Origin: a virus
IMG/VR virus record: IMGVR_UViG_3300045988_097034
Coordinates: 1 to 24,940 of that record
DNA length: 24,940 bases
Direction: 5' to 3' (one strand)
Below the pieces are notes generated by a model that saw nothing but the letters and a program-made list of their open reading frames with translations, was not told the origin of the DNA and searched no databases. Shown here piece by piece: positions 127 to 24,912 of the stretch. The translations under genes were made by a program, and so were the position numbers. Each line of letters starts with the position of its first letter. Position 1 is the stretch's first letter.

Positions 127-1335
127 TTATGCTTGCTTTTGGGCAGGTTTAAACTCCTTAATCAATGCGTCAATACTGATTATTTTATTCGATTTGCGTT
201 TTGGCAATGATTCGACATAGTGCGTATAAATGTCAAGCGTAGTTGACGGCTTAGCGTGTCCCATTTGTTTTTGCACATAGTGGAGTTCGTGACCTGTATA
301 TAACAAATTGGTGGCACAGGTGTGGCGGAGCGAATGAGCTGTAAACCTATCAATTACAAACGGCACTCCTTTAGGATCGTACTTACTTTTTGGCTGTCTT
401 TCATACTCCAAAAAGTCGCCGTATTTGATATTTAGGTCAGCCATATAACTATTCCAGAGCCTTCGCCACGCTGTATCACTCATCAGAGTACCTTTTGCGG
501 AGGTTACAACAAAATCGTCAAGTTTATGTTCAGGCTGTTTCTTTAAAAAATCAATAAGTATTTTTGGCACATCTGTAACAGTACGCACTCCCGATATGGT
601 TTTTGCACCTTGCTCAATATGCACTTTACCTTTTGTTATTAGCTTTTGATGAACGCTAATTGTACGCTTATCAAGGTTTATATCTCGCCATTGCAAGGCA
701 AGGCATTCGCCAAGTCGCAAGCCTGCAAACATCATTATCATAGCTGGCAATTGTGCACGGTGTTTGGTGGATACAACCCACAGCTGTTCTTGTGCAGTCA
801 ATGCTCGCCGTTCTGAGGTTTTTGCGTCCTTCGGTATGTCAATGTATTGTGCAGGCGAATAATCAATTATGCGGTTTTCGATTGCATAGTTAAACACCTG
901 CCTTGCCACACCCCTCCATTCTCTTAATGTTTTCTTTGCGGTTGGCTTCCCGGTGTGAGAATTACAAGCGTACTCATCGAGGATAATTTGTTGAAAATCA
1001 GCCTTTACAAGTTTATTGATTGGTCGGTCACTAAGAACAGCAAAATGCTTCAGATAATTTACATAGTTCTTGTATTGTCGCTCTGAAAGCATTGTTTTTT
1101 TGTAGGCAAGCCATAAGTTAACGAGTTTCCCCCATTTCATTCCTGAGTTTAGCACATCCATACCCTTGCCGATTTGTAACTTGATAAGCTGTGCCTTTTC
1201 TTCAACCTCTTTGACAGAGTAACCGTTGACGGTTTTGTATTTGCGTTTGCCGTCCTCGTCTTTGCCAAGATATACAGACTTTTGATAGCGTCCGTCTGCA
1301 CGCTTTTTAAGTTTTGCTTTTGCCATAATATACAC
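127..1335 (-). CDS. int: Tyrosine recombinase / phage integrase
   Basis: 402 aa. Shows box I GLRLGE, HSLRHTCAT (HxxR) and GHAKPSTTLDIYTHY (catalytic Tyr region). RBS is AAGGAG. Lies adjacent to attL. Confidence 0.95.
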   Translation of the reverse strand: MYIMAKAKLKKRADGRYQKSVYLGKDEDGKRKYKTVNGYSVKEVEEKAQLIKLQIGKGMDVLNSGMKWGKLVNLWLAYKKTMLSERQYKNYVNYLKHFAVLSDRPINKLVKADFQQIILDEYACNSHTGKPTAKKTLREWRGVARQVFNYAIENRIIDYSPAQYIDIPKDAKTSERRALTAQEQLWVVSTKHRAQLPAMIMMFAGLRLGECLALQWRDINLDKRTISVHQKLITKGKVHIEQGAKTISGVRTVTDVPKILIDFLKKQPEHKLDDFVVTSAKGTLMSDTAWRRLWNSYMADLNIKYGDFLEYERQPKSKYDPKGVPFVIDRFTAHSLRHTCATNLLYTGHELHYVQKQMGHAKPSTTLDIYTHYVESLPKRKSNKIISIDALIKEFKPAQKQA

Positions 1336-3377: not shown

Positions 3378-3623
3378 ATGTTATATCCTAATTTGGTGAA
3401 AGCAATGAAAGATGAAGGTGTAACTAAAACAGATATTGCAAATCTGCTTGGATTACATTTCAATACCGTAACTGCAAAACTTGAGGGCGAAACATCTTCA
3501 AGCAAAGCTGTTTATCAGGTTGGCTTTACTTTGATTGAGGCGGTAATGATTAAAAACATATTTTTTAAAAGATATGATCTAGCTTGGCTTTTTGATTTTT
3601 CTGAACACACAAAAACAGCTTAA
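3378..3623 (+). CDS. Cro-like small HTH regulator
   Basis: 81 aa. HTH in TKTDIANLLGLHFNTVTAKLEG. First gene of the rightward operon. RBS GGAGGTG. Confidence 0.6.
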   Translation: MLYPNLVKAMKDEGVTKTDIANLLGLHFNTVTAKLEGETSSSKAVYQVGFTLIEAVMIKNIFFKRYDLAWLFDFSEHTKTA

Positions 3624-3650
3624 CGAAATGTTAAAAAAGGAGGACTGAAA

Positions 3651-3848
3651 ATGCCGAGAGAAAGACCTATTGTCAATTGGGATGAAGTGCCGGTGATTAT
3701 TGATGTGCCGTATGTGGCACGGTTGCTTGCACTTAATGTTGATTACACAACACGGCTTGCACAAAGGGGCGTTCTTCCTGCCCACAAAATCGGAAAGCTT
3801 TGGCGATTTGATAAGGAAGAAATCAGACAATACATAAAGGAGCATTAA
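3651..3848 (+). CDS. Excisionase-type (MerR/HTH_17-like) DNA-binding protein
   Basis: 65 aa. VPYVARLLALNVDYTTRLAQRGVLPAHKIGKLWRFDKEEI matches the excisionase-family HTH pattern. RBS AAGGAGGA. Confidence 0.6.
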   Translation: MPRERPIVNWDEVPVIIDVPYVARLLALNVDYTTRLAQRGVLPAHKIGKLWRFDKEEIRQYIKEH

Positions 3849-3850
3849 CA

Positions 3851-4108
3851 ATGTGGTTAAGAAACTATCCGACACGCAGAAAACTGCTCAAAGATGTTAA
3901 GGAGTTAAGAGAAGAAAACAAAAATCTCAAAAATGAGTTAAAAAAAGCTCGCCTTGATAAATCCCAAACCGAAGAAAATTACACAAACGCTCGATATGCA
4001 TTAGAAGGTTATAAAAACGAGAACACTAAACTCTGTGAAAAACTTTCAATGTATGAATCAGCAAAGGCAAAAACATATGGTTTTGAATGTGTGGGGGTTG
4101 GGAAGTGA
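3851..4108 (+). CDS. Hypothetical coiled-coil protein
   Basis: 85 aa, heptad-rich charged sequence, tightly packed in the early operon. Confidence 0.5.
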   Translation: MWLRNYPTRRKLLKDVKELREENKNLKNELKKARLDKSQTEENYTNARYALEGYKNENTKLCEKLSMYESAKAKTYGFECVGVGK

Positions 4109-8425: not shown

Positions 8426-8808
8426 GAGATTCGACAAGAGACTATACAATTGCACAGTTTAGACTTTATGCTTCTCTTGGTTATCCGAGCAAAGCACAAG
8501 TCGTTGCAGATAAGACAATGCACCGAGCATTACAACTTGACCTGCTTGCTGTGATAGACACGCTCAATGCTTTAACAAGCAGCGGCAAAGACTACATCTG
8601 TCAAGCTGTCAGCGCTGTTTACTTTGTTGCACCAACAGCGGCATTGCATAAAGGTGAGATAAATTTGAGGGTGACTAAGTTTGCAGTTAGCAACTATACC
8701 GACGAACGCACGGTGTTTCGCTGGCTCAAAGAGGCACGATTGCTCTGTGCTGATTACCGAGGCTTAAATATTGGCACCGACAAAGATGTCAGTAGAGAAA
8801 GCAGTTGA
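8422..8808 (+). CDS. Putative late-gene transcriptional activator (sigma region-4 / ArpU-RinA-like)
   Basis: 128 aa with a TTG start 7 nt after GGAGGTG. The C-terminal segment ERTVFRWLKEARLLCA looks like a sigma-type HTH. It sits immediately upstream of the HNH and terminase genes, typical of late activators. Confidence 0.4.
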   Translation: MRDSTRDYTIAQFRLYASLGYPSKAQVVADKTMHRALQLDLLAVIDTLNALTSSGKDYICQAVSAVYFVAPTAALHKGEINLRVTKFAVSNYTDERTVFRWLKEARLLCADYRGLNIGTDKDVSRESS

Positions 8809-8825
8809 GGGTTTATACTTAGAGT

Positions 8826-9158
8826 ATGAAAGACTATGCAAAATCTTTTTACTTATCGCAATCTTGGAGAGCTTGCAGAGATGCTTATTTCCGTAAGCAA
8901 AACGGAGTGTGTGAGCGTTGTGGTAATGCAGGCGACATAGTTCACCACAAATGCTACATCAATCCTGACAACATCAACAATCCAAAGATAACTCTGAACT
9001 TCGACAATCTCGAATTGCTCTGTCAGGATTGCCACAACAAAGAACATATGTCAAATCGAAAAGAAAAAAAGAAAAATAAAATAAATAATACTCGCTACTC
9101 TGTTGATGACGAAGGAAACATACTACCCCCCACCTCAAAAAATAAAATACCCCCCTGA
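8826..9158 (+). CDS. HNH endonuclease (packaging-associated)
   Basis: 110 aa. CERCGNAGDIVHHKCYI...NLELLCQDCHNKEH (CxxC...HH...N...CxxCH). Lies directly upstream of the terminase genes. Confidence 0.9.
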   Translation: MKDYAKSFYLSQSWRACRDAYFRKQNGVCERCGNAGDIVHHKCYINPDNINNPKITLNFDNLELLCQDCHNKEHMSNRKEKKKNKINNTRYSVDDEGNILPPTSKNKIPP

Positions 9159-22145: not shown

Positions 22146-22400
22146 GTGGCAACTGAAATTATTATAGCTTTAATCACACTTGCAGGATCTGCGGTGGGTA
22201 CTCTTGGGGGTATTGTGATTAACAGTCGAATGTCGAACTATCGCATTGAACAGCTCGAAAAAAAGGTTGACAAGCATAACAGCCTCATCGAGCGTACATA
22301 TGCGATTGAACAGCACAATGCAGTTGTAGACGAAGAAATTAAGGTCGCAAATCACAGAATTGACGACCTCGAAAAAAACAACGAAAGGAAAGAACGATGA
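22146..22400 (+). CDS. Membrane-anchored coiled-coil protein (XhlA-like lysis accessory?)
   Basis: 84 aa with a GTG start. N-terminal TM IIIALITLAGSAVGTLGGIVI followed by a charged coiled coil. Confidence 0.4.
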   Translation: MATEIIIALITLAGSAVGTLGGIVINSRMSNYRIEQLEKKVDKHNSLIERTYAIEQHNAVVDEEIKVANHRIDDLEKNNERKER

Positions 22401-22606
22401 TGAAAAACATTTTTACAAAACAGTGGGCAAAAGCAACAGCTGTCAGAGCGATTAAGACCGTTGCACAGACTGCTATTGCAACAATCGGAGTATCTGCCGT
22501 TATGACAGATGTAAATTGGCTTGCAGTAGGCTCGGCATCTTTGCTTGCAGGTGTATTGTCTGTGTTGACAAGCATTGCAGGTTTGCCCGAAGTTTCGGAA
22601 AACTAA
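22397..22606 (+). CDS. Holin
   Basis: 69 aa. VRAIKTVAQTAIATIG...LLAGVLSVLTSIAGLPE is a common Gram-positive phage holin pattern with two TM segments. Confidence 0.75.
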   Translation: MMKNIFTKQWAKATAVRAIKTVAQTAIATIGVSAVMTDVNWLAVGSASLLAGVLSVLTSIAGLPEVSEN

Positions 22607-22618
22607 CTAAAATAAAAG

Positions 22619-22666
22619 GATAGCCCAGTTGAAAATTAAATTTCTTCTGGACTATCTATATTTTTT
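22619..22666. terminator. Bidirectional terminator shared by the holin and the convergent reverse-strand gene
   Basis: Stem 22619-22628/22647-22656 (9 bp plus one C-A mismatch), 18-nt loop. Followed by T6 (22661-22666) on the plus strand and by a U-rich CCUUUUAUUUU on the minus strand. Confidence 0.5.
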
Positions 22667-22675
22667 AGATTATTG

Positions 22676-23173
22676 TTACGAAATTACTGGTATGCCGGTT
22701 ATATATGGTGGAAGTCCATCTGGGTAAAGTTTAATGAGATTTTTGTAATTTCTTTTATAGTTTTCATTATTTTTGATTGATTTCTGCCATTTGCGTACTG
22801 CATTAAGAATATTATTGCAAAAAAGCTTAACATCAATATTTAAGGCATCATTTATAACATTGTTATGCATAGTTATGCCATGACAAGCTGGAGCTAAAAA
22901 TATAATTCGTGAATATGTAGAATTTTCGTGTGTGGTTTGTGCTTGATGCACATATGAACAACGAAAATAGTAACAATCCTTGCCGGAAATAGATGGATAG
23001 CCCGGTTCTTTTGCGTAAGTGTCATACCAAGCAATATATTTATGTTTATTTGCTACTCCGTCATTTGACTGCAGTGCTCCACAAATATCGGGTAATGTTA
23101 GAGAAGCTTGCAACGCTAAATAGTATAGTTTAGCGTCTAATGCCCGTTCAATTTCTTTTAAAATCAACTCCAT
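22676..23173 (-). CDS. Hypothetical cytoplasmic protein with an Rx4H (HEPN-like) motif; reverse-strand accessory gene inside the lysis cassette
   Basis: ORF 22676..23182. Preferred ATG 23173, 6 nt after GGGAGGTG (the upstream GTG is part of the RBS). 165 aa, no TM. Contains FRCSYVHQ. Visibly more AT-rich than its neighbours. Confidence 0.75.
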   Translation of the reverse strand: MELILKEIERALDAKLYYLALQASLTLPDICGALQSNDGVANKHKYIAWYDTYAKEPGYPSISGKDCYYFRCSYVHQAQTTHENSTYSRIIFLAPACHGITMHNNVINDALNIDVKLFCNNILNAVRKWQKSIKNNENYKRNYKNLIKLYPDGLPPYITGIPVIS

Positions 23174-23198
23174 ATGATTCACCTCCCTTCTATTATGA

Positions 23199-23227
23199 AT
23201 TATACCATATTAAAAAATGTAGTAAAA
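23199..23227 (-). promoter_or_regulatory. Extended -10 promoter of the reverse-strand accessory gene
   Basis: Minus strand: TGGTATAAT (23207..23199), with TTTACT/TTTTAC 16-17 nt upstream. Confidence 0.5.
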
Positions 23228-23271
23228 GTGGGGAGTGCATAAAATAAAAACGAAAGTGAGGAATAATAATT

Positions 23272-24069
23272 ATGTCAGCAAAAAGAATCTATCTCAGTCC
23301 GTCAAATCAGAATAGGAACACCTATGCAACGGGCGGTACAAATGAAATGGCTCAGTGCGACAAAATCGCTGTCGCAACAGCCAAAGCTCTCAAGCGTTGC
23401 GGTTTTGAGGTTATGGTCGCAAAGTCGGGAACGCTTATGCAGACACGCTGTCCCGAATCGGACAAGTTCGGTGCAGACATTCATATGCCGATTCACACCA
23501 ACGCTTTTAACGGCAAATACACAGGCGGTACAAGAGTTTTCTGCCTGAACTCAAACGGCAGAAAGGCTGCCGAGGCGGTAAAGTCTGCCCTCGGAGCAAT
23601 TTCACCCGGCAAGGATGATTCAGTCAGCTACAAAACCGACCTCTACGAAATCAATGTGCCGAGGGCATTGACCGTGTATGTTGAGTGTGAATTTCACGAC
23701 ACCGTGACAGGCTCGAACTGGATCAGGAACAACACAAACGCAATTGCTGAGGCAATCTGCAAGGGTATGTGTAAATACTTCGGCTATAAGTATAAGTCGG
23801 CAAGCTCATCAGGCACAACAAAGCCTACGCAGACATCGAAGCCGACAACATCAAAAGCGTTTAAACCGTACATTGTCAGGATTACCGCAAATGACGGTGT
23901 GAACATCCGCAAAGGTGCAGGCACGAACTATCCCGTGTGCGGCTCAATTGCAAAAGGCGGAGCGTACACAATCGTAGCCGAAAAATCAGGCGCAGGCGCA
24001 AAAAAGTGGGGCAAGCTCAAAAGCGGTGCCGGCTGGATTGCCCTCGACTACACAGCGAAAATTAAGTAA
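23272..24069 (+). CDS. Endolysin: N-acetylmuramoyl-L-alanine amidase (Amidase_3 type) with C-terminal SH3b domain
   Basis: 265 aa. IYLSPSNQ...ADIHMPIHTNA...YVECEFHD catalytic pattern, an S/T/P linker, then VNIRKGAGTNYPVCGSIAKGGAYTI...GWIALDY, which is SH3-like. Confidence 0.9.
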   Translation: MSAKRIYLSPSNQNRNTYATGGTNEMAQCDKIAVATAKALKRCGFEVMVAKSGTLMQTRCPESDKFGADIHMPIHTNAFNGKYTGGTRVFCLNSNGRKAAEAVKSALGAISPGKDDSVSYKTDLYEINVPRALTVYVECEFHDTVTGSNWIRNNTNAIAEAICKGMCKYFGYKYKSASSSGTTKPTQTSKPTTSKAFKPYIVRITANDGVNIRKGAGTNYPVCGSIAKGGAYTIVAEKSGAGAKKWGKLKSGAGWIALDYTAKIK

Positions 24070-24143: not shown

Positions 24144-24320
24144 TCATTTGCGGATATTTTTAAGCTCTTTCAGTATAAGCCGTTCAAAGTAAGGCTTAGG
24201 GTAGTTTGGATTGTTGTCGCTTTCCCAATTTTCCCAAGTACGGTAAGGTACTTTCATAATCTTTGCAACATCTGCTCTGCTAAGACCTGTTGCAATTCTT
24301 GCTTCTTTGATTTTATTCAT
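24144..24320 (-). CDS. Small XRE-like HTH protein (58 aa, below the ORF-track cutoff)
   Basis: My translation: MNKIKEARIATGLSRADVAKIMKVPYRTWENWESDNNPNYPKPYFERLILKELKNIRK. RBS AGGAGA 7 nt upstream. The plus-strand ORF 24129..24335 is its shadow. Confidence 0.7.
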   Translation of the reverse strand: MNKIKEARIATGLSRADVAKIMKVPYRTWENWESDNNPNYPKPYFERLILKELKNIRK

Positions 24321-24480
24321 TGTGATTTCTCCTGAACATTACAAATTCGTGAATAGTTTGTGCAAGTACAATAACTGCATTTATGCCCAAGGCTATGCGA
24401 GCAACAACAAAAAAATTACTTGCAACGCATACGATAAATAAACAAATAAGGCTGAACAGCCAAAAATTATTTTTCTTCAT
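24313..24480 (-). CDS. Small hydrophobic membrane protein (55 aa), overlapping the downstream HTH gene by 8 nt
   Basis: My translation: MKKNNFWLFSLICLFIVCVASNFFVVARIALGINAVIVLAQTIHEFVMFRRNHNE. The stop lies within ATGAATAA at the HTH start. Weak RBS GAAAGGA. Confidence 0.5.
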   Translation of the reverse strand: MKKNNFWLFSLICLFIVCVASNFFVVARIALGINAVIVLAQTIHEFVMFRRNHNE

Positions 24481-24683: not shown

Positions 24684-24712
24684 ATTATACACCTAATAGG
24701 TGTATTTGTCAA
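24684..24712 (-). promoter_or_regulatory. Perfect consensus sigma-A promoter reading leftward from the attR arm
   Basis: Minus strand: TTGACA (24712..24707), 17 nt, TATAAT (24689..24684), with an AT-rich upstream region containing TTATAAAAT twice. Confidence 0.65.
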
Positions 24713-24867: not shown

Positions 24868-24912
24868 AACCGCACTAAAAAGCTTGAAAATAGCTTTCTA
24901 ATGCGGTTTTTC
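24868..24912. terminator. Long hairpin terminator directly downstream of the tRNA 3' end (phage-supplied), also blocking rightward readout of the prophage
   Basis: 15 of 17 positions pair between 24868-24884 and 24892-24908, with loop TGAAAAT. The hairpin is followed by a T-run on the plus strand and by TTATTTTTAT on the minus strand. Confidence 0.6.

Follow-up and report, generated by a model that had tools for sequence, protein, structure and literature searches.

A one-gene cassette inserted at the holin 3′ end of a temperate gut phage encodes a probable RNase-type accessory protein of a large unnamed family

The viral DNA analysed here, 24,940 nucleotides (nt) of IMG/VR record IMGVR_UViG_3300045988_097034 (positions 1 to 24,940, referred to as the window), is a complete small temperate siphovirus in which a single reverse-strand gene, encoding a protein of 165 amino acids (aa) that we call X165, stands between the holin and endolysin genes. 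The question raised by this locus is whether X165 is a component of the lysis machinery or a passenger and, if a passenger, what its product does. A sequence-only reading of the window had proposed an autonomous, separately acquired, AT-rich cassette whose product carries the Rx4H signature of HEPN ribonucleases (RNases). Comparison with related prophages demonstrates that the cassette is an insertion and not an original part of the lysis cassette, and the evidence considered below suggests that X165 is probably an RNase-type accessory (defence) gene.

Insertion of the X165 cassette into the holin 3′ end

Eighty IMG/VR loci with related holins were compared with the window, and 37 of these, with holin identity of at least 90% and sufficient sequence downstream, were informative. 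The cassette is found in 12 of the 37, with its gene always on the reverse strand and at +73 to +570 from the holin end, and is missing from the remaining 25, where the next lysis gene begins 12 nt past the holin; none of 40 loci with more distant holins carries X165 within the flank examined. The occupied site in the window is composed of the following features, where RBS denotes a ribosome-binding site.

22397..22606, plus strand: r1t-type holin gene (E = 4.6e-16)
22602..23255: inserted cassette, 654 bp, with junctions mapped to within 4 nt
22608..22617 and 23240-23249: left and right copies of a 10-bp direct repeat, TAAAATAAAA, just inside both cassette ends
22619..22656, minus strand: terminator-like hairpin (arms 22619-22628 and 22647-22656), just past the X165 stop
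22676..23173, minus strand: X165 gene (165-aa product), between holin and endolysin
23187..23180, minus strand: RBS GGGAGGTG, 6 nt 5′ of the ATG, conserved in every cassette copy
23207..23199, minus strand: extended −10 element TGGTATAAT, within a promoter-like site at 23199..23226
23226..23221, minus strand: −35-like TTTACT, 16 nt upstream of the extended −10
23249..23266, plus strand: remnant of the ancestral holin 3′ end, AACGAAAGTGAGGAATAA, now serving only as the endolysin RBS region
23272..24069, plus strand: endolysin gene (Amidase_3 and SH3_3), the downstream flank of the insertion

The empty site reads CCCGAAGTrTCrGAAAGyGAGGArTAAyyATG, and the holin it encodes ends in PEV(S/N)ESEE, its last codons containing the RBS of the next gene. 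At the occupied site the sequence becomes ...TCGGAAA/ACTAAC...(cassette)...ATAAAAACGAAA/GTGAGGAATAA (junctions marked by slashes), such that the holin instead ends in PEVSEN, with its last codons and stop supplied by the insert. The insert boundaries are ambiguous by 4 nt because GAAA is present at both junctions (22598-22601 and 23252-23255). The displaced holin end on the far side of the cassette can be aligned to the 3′ end of the holin gene at empty sites, among them L042 and L049, and the window endolysin is 95% identical to that of L042, which begins 12 nt after the L042 holin. The 10-bp repeat, for which our own rough estimate of the probability of chance occurrence at both ends is about 0.001-0.01, was considered as a target-site duplication and rejected, as the sequence is missing from the empty sites.

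The junctions are identical in 12 of 12 occupied IMG/VR loci, and the genes downstream of the cassette vary among the carriers, being Amidase_3 directly, DUF6275 followed by Amidase_3, or Amidase_2. Shared junctions in spite of varied downstream genes point to one insertion event with subsequent spread of the cassette among related phages through recombination. The host of these phages is indicated by an NCBI assembly with the same prophage, in which a flanking host gene shares 99% identity with genes of Ruminococcus bromii and Ruminococcoides, and by the R. bromii label on one cluster member.

The holin 3′ end with its embedded RBS (GAAAGyGAGGArTAAyyATG; window 22589-22606 and 23249-23271) is itself a conserved joint among loci L030-L068. 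The modules exchanged behind it include Amidase_3 with SH3, a 279-aa Amidase_2 type, 294/295-aa lysins, and optional genes of 62 aa and 89 aa (DUF6275), and the joint looks like a recombination linker for mosaic endolysin exchange.

X165 adjoins lysis genes in the window and in several other phages, which speaks for a role in assisting or regulating lysis, for example as an antiholin or timing factor. That explanation is effectively refuted, however, by the absence of the gene from the 25 near-identical lysis cassettes, its position on the opposite strand, its lack of any match to a lysis family, the absence of an obvious membrane-spanning helix in either of two AlphaFold2 (AF2) models (no transmembrane or signal-peptide predictor was used), and the presence of homologues in archaeal and candidate phyla radiation (CPR) chromosomes without any phage genes. 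X165 is dispensable for lysis and stands without a partner gene.

The open reading frame (ORF) listed for X165 (22676..23182, minus strand) starts with GTG and would encode 168 aa; the ATG at 23173, which gives the 165-aa product, agrees with the N-termini of all homologues. Upstream, the extended −10 is unchanged in all cassette copies despite a 6-bp indel that alters its spacing to the −35. A promoter scan yielded overall no enrichment over shuffles in this AT-rich stretch (10 seen against 8.7 expected), so the predicted promoter rests on its position and its conservation in all cassettes. The indel itself (TTTATA or TATATA, window 23208-23220) splits the cassettes into two variants and is seen at loci L028, L032, L033, L036-L038 and L040.

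The hairpin beyond the X165 stop has a fold energy of −20.7 kcal/mol (z = −4.5; 0 of 200 shuffles as stable) and is flanked by T/U runs on both strands, at 22657-22668 on the plus strand and at 22607-22619 read on the minus strand. A simple terminator scan with a loop limit of 3-8 bases did not list it, probably because its wide loop region exceeds that limit. On the minus transcript the hairpin is fully paired using one G.U (−17.3 kcal/mol), whereas the plus transcript contains a C.A mismatch (−14.8 kcal/mol); the fuller pairing on the minus transcript makes the hairpin look suited to the reverse gene. On the plus strand, TATATTTTTT follows the hairpin, and its location between holin and endolysin means that late transcription must read through it, unless carriers express less endolysin.

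The base composition of the cassette is deviant: the G+C content is 33.5% in the X165 coding sequence and 31.9% in the insert, compared with 40.1% in the window and 49.4% in the endolysin gene; G+C at third codon positions is 24.7% in X165 as against 35-55% in adjacent genes; and just 2.3% of 655-bp windows are equally AT-rich. All 13 X165 alleles are intact and retain both PDIC and RCSYVHQ, and the ratio of nonsynonymous to synonymous substitution rates (dN/dS) is about 0.4. X165 is a real gene under purifying selection. By its sequence it is a one-gene cassette oriented against the late operon, with its own predicted extended −10, RBS and terminator hairpin. The architectural claims of the sequence-only reading therefore stand: the strong RBS and extended −10 are both kept in every copy, the hairpin has its T/U runs on both strands, the gene is AT-rich relative to the window, and the adjacency of holin and next lysis gene at empty sites, with identical junctions in the carriers, bears out separate acquisition. 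Whether the gene was a fixed part of the lysis machinery had been named beforehand as a check, and its patchy presence, together with family members among cellular housekeeping genes, answers it in the negative.

The X165 family and its genomic settings

X165 belongs to PHROG 18591, a family of unknown function; the match to its hidden Markov model (HMM) has E = 1.2e-37 and 130 bits, and covers residues 1-158 and profile positions 3-166 of 168. Searches of Pfam, NCBIfam and PADLOC with X165 gave no match, such that the family, which had been thought possibly undescribed, lacks a model in those three collections and is nonetheless already catalogued, without a function, in PHROG. Its absence from them means that current defence-annotation pipelines would overlook the X165 family. 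In the literature searched, PHROG 18591 is unmentioned, and a search on HEPN with SPbeta found nothing.

A profile search of 1.84 billion cluster representatives returned 3,324 members at E <= 1e-3 and 2,183 at E <= 1e-10, which gives a family size of about 3,300 counted as clusters at 50% identity. Phage members are found in Gordonia phage Bowser, 35 Arthrobacter phages, an SPbeta-like Bacillus phage, E. coli phage ECP1 and Acinetobacter phages, and a few plasmids also carry members. Chromosomal members 42-53% identical are found in Thermococcus aggregans, Bathyarchaeota, CPR bacteria, Dehalococcoidia, Legionella anisa, Verrucomicrobiota and Nitrospirae. Relatives in GTDB genomes were recovered with a narrower alignment; the tail protein, X165 by itself and a wide alignment recovered none.

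The phage copies occupy accessory positions near the late-operon end. In other gut prophages the homologue is antiparallel and directly follows the endolysin or tail fibre gene, and in at least eight further viral contigs, as well as in L135, L136 and L138, it is a lone gene antiparallel to its neighbours, usually beside an endolysin or tail fibre gene. In actinophages it is part of a reverse-strand block beside the integrase and repressor/immunity genes. In the Bacillus prophages it is positioned between tail fibre and holin, and in ECP1 after Rz. The ECP1 member (KY979108.1, about 8602-9090; L003 3989-4477) is an unannotated ORF in the stretch that separates the lysis genes from the terminase region, and DNA similar to it was found in none of 5,426 complete E. 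coli genomes. Gut prophages L136 (2374-2976 and 1685-2089), L137 and L138 also have a loaded accessory region on the non-endolysin side of the homologue, where a PARP-like ADP-ribosyltransferase is found with a SecB-like chaperone, together with RelE-like and HicB-like genes; this content marks the region as a cargo hot spot.

No recurrent neighbour gene was found in 24 diverse family loci. The exception to this pattern, and the only recurrent neighbour seen across the family, is a GDSL-family lipase/acylhydrolase gene in the Gordonia and Arthrobacter phages, always next to the homologue on the same strand and 20-28 nt downstream, at the following loci.

L001, 5514-6257: GDSL-lipase neighbour
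L010, 5530-6297: GDSL-lipase neighbour
L258: GDSL-lipase neighbour
L260: GDSL-lipase neighbour

A type II toxin was also considered and rejected, on the grounds that the cassette has no second ORF and the diverse loci no recurrent neighbour. A selfish toxin of a type I or type III toxin-antitoxin pair, with an RNA antitoxin inside the cassette that stabilises the cassette or prophage, would suit a solo gene whose very patchy distribution across phyla suggests frequent horizontal transfer, and convergence with the holin transcript means that an antisense RNA could exist. This explanation is nevertheless very improbable, given that the non-coding parts of the cassette amount to only about 70 and 90 nt, into which a ToxI-type tandem-repeat array is unlikely to fit (no repeat search was made), that Rfam finds no match in the whole window, and that no small conserved ORF lies beside the gene in other contexts.

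Among the cellular members, the T. aggregans homologue (CP099582.1; L011 5492-6803) is 53% identical to the gut prophage protein. It overlaps a DUF402 gene by 13 nt and is followed 15 nt later by a YggU/DUF167 gene, an arrangement that looks like an operon in a non-mobile context. A Pfam search of ten longer family members revealed no known extra domain; two family members, P0146 and P0173, share a homologous C-terminal extension of about 165 aa that has no Pfam match and may be a real fusion partner.

Conserved motif, predicted fold and possible role

The Rx4H predicted for FRCSYVHQ is present as R71-x4-H76, and a second motif, PDIC, contains D29 and C31. An Rx4H occurs in 14% of shuffles of the X165 sequence and alone is weak evidence for that reason; its near-invariance across the family indicates that it is not a chance occurrence. 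Among 244 aligned members, R71 is found in 242, H76 in 243, P28 in 241, D29 in 227 (with Glu in a further 8) and C31 in 231, and R71 and H76 are also invariant in alignments A1, A4 and A5. Rx4H is the best-kept polar feature of the family. In a divergent SPbeta-type subfamily, related to the X165 subfamily with 100% probability by profile-profile comparison, nothing is invariant apart from the P, D, C, R and H of PDxC...Rx4H. A Cys4/Cys3His metal site formed by C31, C67, C72 and C119 was considered and rejected, since several members have hydrophobic residues in place of C67 and C119 and Gly in place of C72.

Two AF2 models, with predicted local distance difference test (pLDDT) scores of 95.0 and 91.6, agree in secondary structure. 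The elements predicted for X165 are listed below.

Residues 2-13: helix
Residues 17-35: helix with D29 and C31
Residues 43-54: helix
Residues 64-77: helix ending with R71...H76, then a loop
After residue 77: three-stranded sheet, helix 115-133, a short helix and an extended conserved tail

The corresponding helix of the second model spans 63-76 and contains R70 and H75, and in both models an extra helix separates the D29 helix from the Rx4H helix. The HEPN domain is a four-helix bundle in which Rx4-6H ends core helix-3 and leads into the loop to helix-4, with a polar N, D or H "typically", not obligatorily, after the Arg, and in which helix-2 carries a conserved acidic residue that is usually part of an Ex3[KR] motif (PMC3710099). 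The predicted placement of the X165 Rx4H at a helix end before a loop matches the helix-3/loop position of this core (PMC3710099), and D29 is positioned in an upstream helix, within PDxC and not within Ex3[KR]. Foldseek searches of the PDB with the two models gave only insignificant matches (E > 0.09, template modelling (TM) score < 0.4); in both of these lists the top-TM matches are HEPN proteins, namely 8y7f Csx1-Crn2 (0.39), 2hsb AF_0298 (0.30/0.38) and 6qzt Csx1 (0.27). Foldseek against BFVD returned family members only. One B. velezensis homologue carries the UniRef label "Apea-like HEPN domain-containing protein", which was not reproduced with current Pfam or PADLOC.

Several observations weigh against a HEPN-type RNase acting in defence. 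The Ex3[KR] motif is absent from the family, and the residue after R71 is Cys in 230 of 244 members, with Asn in 6 and Ser in 4, in place of the usual N, D or H. The three-stranded sheet and the conserved C-terminal tail (GLPPYIVGxPVIS) are lacking in typical HEPN domains; among HEPN proteins, Csx1 carries added β-hairpins (PMC3710099). None of 153 members (46 of A1 and 107 of A5) matched a Pfam HEPN family at E <= 10, nor did Pfam reveal a recurring family of any kind in A1 and A5; PADLOC, including its ApeA and Abi (abortive infection) families, produced from 108 members one noise-level CARF_HEPN match (E = 0.078); and neither sequence nor profile searches of the PDB gave a match for X165, A1 or A5. 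Conservation across phyla and domains is unusually high (42-53% identity to the Thermococcus, CPR and Legionella copies), and the cellular neighbours are unrelated housekeeping genes (SecA, ThiG, tRNA synthetases), not defence islands. Finally, the homologue is co-directional with late genes in the Bacillus prophages and in ECP1. The earlier assignment to HEPN was thus not confirmed, with no HMM, profile or significant Foldseek match and just the motif placement and weak top-TM matches in its favour. A HEPN-like fold of X165 is likely on the predicted models, though unproven, and X165 is not assignable to any named HEPN family.

The main rival keeps the moron but has as its cargo an enzyme of new fold, unrelated to HEPN, that uses D29, C31, R71 and H76 for other chemistry, such as that of a Cys/His hydrolase or transferase or of an enzyme that modifies nucleotides or RNA, with a benefit other than RNA-cleaving abortive infection. 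The lack of any significant structural or profile match to anything, the non-HEPN character of the alpha/beta elements and tail, and the retention of C31, which like P, D, R and H never varies in the divergent subfamily, would all fit such an enzyme, as would the high cross-domain conservation and housekeeping surroundings, which suggest a universal small-molecule or RNA substrate, and the DUF402 overlap and YggU-family neighbour in T. aggregans. However, C31 is replaced by Ala in 12 of the 244 members and so is unlikely to be an essential nucleophile, the Rx4H at a helix end with an Asp in an upstream helix suits HEPN, and HEPN proteins recur as the top-TM matches. We regard a new fold as possible but rather unlikely.

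The co-directional copies, the presence of the gene in many unrelated phages and its strong conservation, as would suit an enzyme that acts on a conserved molecule of the host or of its immunity, could alternatively indicate that X165 aids lytic growth as an anti-defence or host-takeover enzyme and does not protect the lysogen. We consider this improbable: in the window and at least 10 further phage lineages the gene runs against the late operon and has its own predicted sigma-70-type promoter, which is the usual layout of lysogen-expressed genes; the actinophage copies are grouped with the integrase and immunity block; the family is common in cellular genomes without phage context; and about two thirds of the sister prophages lack X165.

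The reading we favour, to which as a whole we assign a rough probability of 0.4, is that X165 is a moron product, a lysogen-expressed HEPN-type RNase that is triggered by a cue and aborts phage growth. A self-contained transcription unit would have inserted a single time into the final holin codons of an R. bromii prophage, and the cassette would have spread afterwards among related phages via recombination. Its product, a member of the large unnamed family described above, is predicted to be a soluble enzyme that acts on its own, with a catalytic centre formed by R71 and H76 at one helix end and D29, possibly with C31, in an earlier helix, in the layout of a HEPN-type metal-independent RNase. 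X165 would be transcribed from the prophage in the lysogen and held at rest as an inactive oligomer until an infecting or induced phage supplies an activating cue, at which point it would cut RNA (tRNA or mRNA) and halt phage growth, as HepS of Gifsy-1 and Butters gp57r do. A broader proposal, which is tentative and on balance doubtful, is that X165 would be the founding member of a so far unrecognised and very large group of stand-alone nucleases in bacteria (CPR included), archaea and many kinds of phage, with a PDxC...Rx4H centre on an alpha/beta-decorated HEPN-like or new scaffold, captured repeatedly by at least five unrelated temperate phage lineages as a one-gene, lysogen-expressed immunity module beside the lysis genes.

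If X165 is a solo RNase-type defence, the family would be a large cross-domain addition to the one-gene HEPN immunity proteins (HepS, gp57r, ApeA, AbiD/F) and would provide one for R. bromii, a keystone starch degrader of the human gut, with a bearing on phage-host dynamics there. If it is not a defence, it is still a highly conserved enzyme common to archaea, bacteria and phages. In either case the 12 occupied and 25 empty near-identical prophages form a natural isogenic comparison set, and the locus is a clean example of a moron that lands in a holin gene, rewrites its C-terminus and keeps the endolysin RBS.

The surrounding prophage and known counterparts

The lysogeny module of the window, which also holds an M78 peptidase, is followed in order by the large terminase, portal, ClpP-type protease, capsid and tail genes and the lysis cassette. 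Other features of the window are as follows.

127-1335, minus strand: integrase gene, lysogeny module
83-aa ORF: first gene of the lysis region
22146-22400: XhlA-like protein, lysis region
24144-24480, minus strand: two small genes past the endolysin, encoding a 58-aa helix-turn-helix (HTH) protein and a 55-aa hydrophobic protein
24684-24712, minus strand: perfect consensus promoter upstream of the 58-aa and 55-aa genes (TTGACA, 17 nt, TATAAT)
24868-24908, minus strand: hairpin with a 17-bp stem, farther upstream than that promoter

The sequence-only reading had described X165 as the sole reverse-strand gene between 3378 and 24069. The other minus-strand ORFs of at least 80 aa in this interval are 78-100% overlapped by plus-strand ORFs and shadow plus-strand genes, in agreement with that description; a 98-aa ORF with a GTG start at the lysogeny/early boundary (3579..3875, minus strand) has plus-strand ORF coverage of just 24% and, being mostly uncovered, may be one exception. 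Past the endolysin, ORFs equal in size to the 58-aa and 55-aa genes are present in the same place and orientation in related prophages L019, L023, L042 and L066, and the pair may form a further unit expressed in the lysogen, located where the prophage ends.

The closest functional counterpart considered is HepS (STM14_3211), the "HEPN Solo" protein of Salmonella prophage Gifsy-1, which acts by abortive infection (PDB 9OIJ, 9OIK); it is constitutive and non-toxic, has no partner, and cleaves tRNA anticodons when triggered by the tail-tip protein J (PMC13043305). Like X165, HepS is the product of a single prophage gene in an accessory-gene position, without partner or inhibitor; both proteins are small with one Rx4H, HepS being cytoplasmic and its motif being needed for function, and the homologues of both are scattered over phyla and often on prophages. 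HepS has at least 203 residues with R100/H105, whereas X165 has 165 residues with R71/H76 and, unlike HepS, contains a β-sheet insert, a PDxC motif and a Cys after the Arg. The activity of HepS was demonstrated experimentally, while X165 is known from its sequence and models. Against the reading favoured here, 9OIJ and 9OIK are absent from the Foldseek lists and from the PDB sequence and profile results, their inclusion in the target set being unconfirmed. The LT2 Gifsy-1 record is a prophage without the HepS gene.

Butters gp57r, from a mycobacteriophage, is weakly HEPN-like with RDRCAH as its Rx4H, and is constitutive, non-toxic and able to block heterotypic phages (bioRxiv 10.1101/2023.01.03.522681). 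Both gp57r and X165 are encoded by reverse-strand stand-alone prophage genes; the HEPN similarity of gp57r is weak and located around its Rx4H, and its defence phenotype was shown experimentally. It is not a detectable homologue, as tblastn of phages with X165 gave no Mycobacterium phage. A metagenomic defence screen mentions neither HEPN nor Ruminococcus (PMC12366544).

With the wider HEPN superfamily (ApeA/Apea-like proteins, HEPN-T AF_0298 in 2hsb, and Csx1), X165 shares the near-invariant Rx4H at a helix end followed by a loop and the conserved acidic residue in an upstream helix, and differs in having no Pfam HEPN profile match, TM scores below 0.4, Cys in place of N, D or H, and no Ex3[KR]. 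The morons of lambdoid phages, a concept of Juhala and Hendrix exemplified by lambda bor and lom, consist of one gene with its own promoter and terminator. The X165 cassette resembles them in its deviant base composition, its position between genes that are adjacent in relatives and its location near the late-operon end, and differs from them in its unrelated cargo and in having inserted inside the holin coding sequence, the last codons of which it rewrites. The placement of morons near lysis genes is thus classical, and solo HEPN prophage defences are already known; what is new here is the protein family, which is large, spans bacteria, archaea and phages, bears the PDxC...Rx4H signature and has no characterised member, together with an insertion that is documented with unusual precision.

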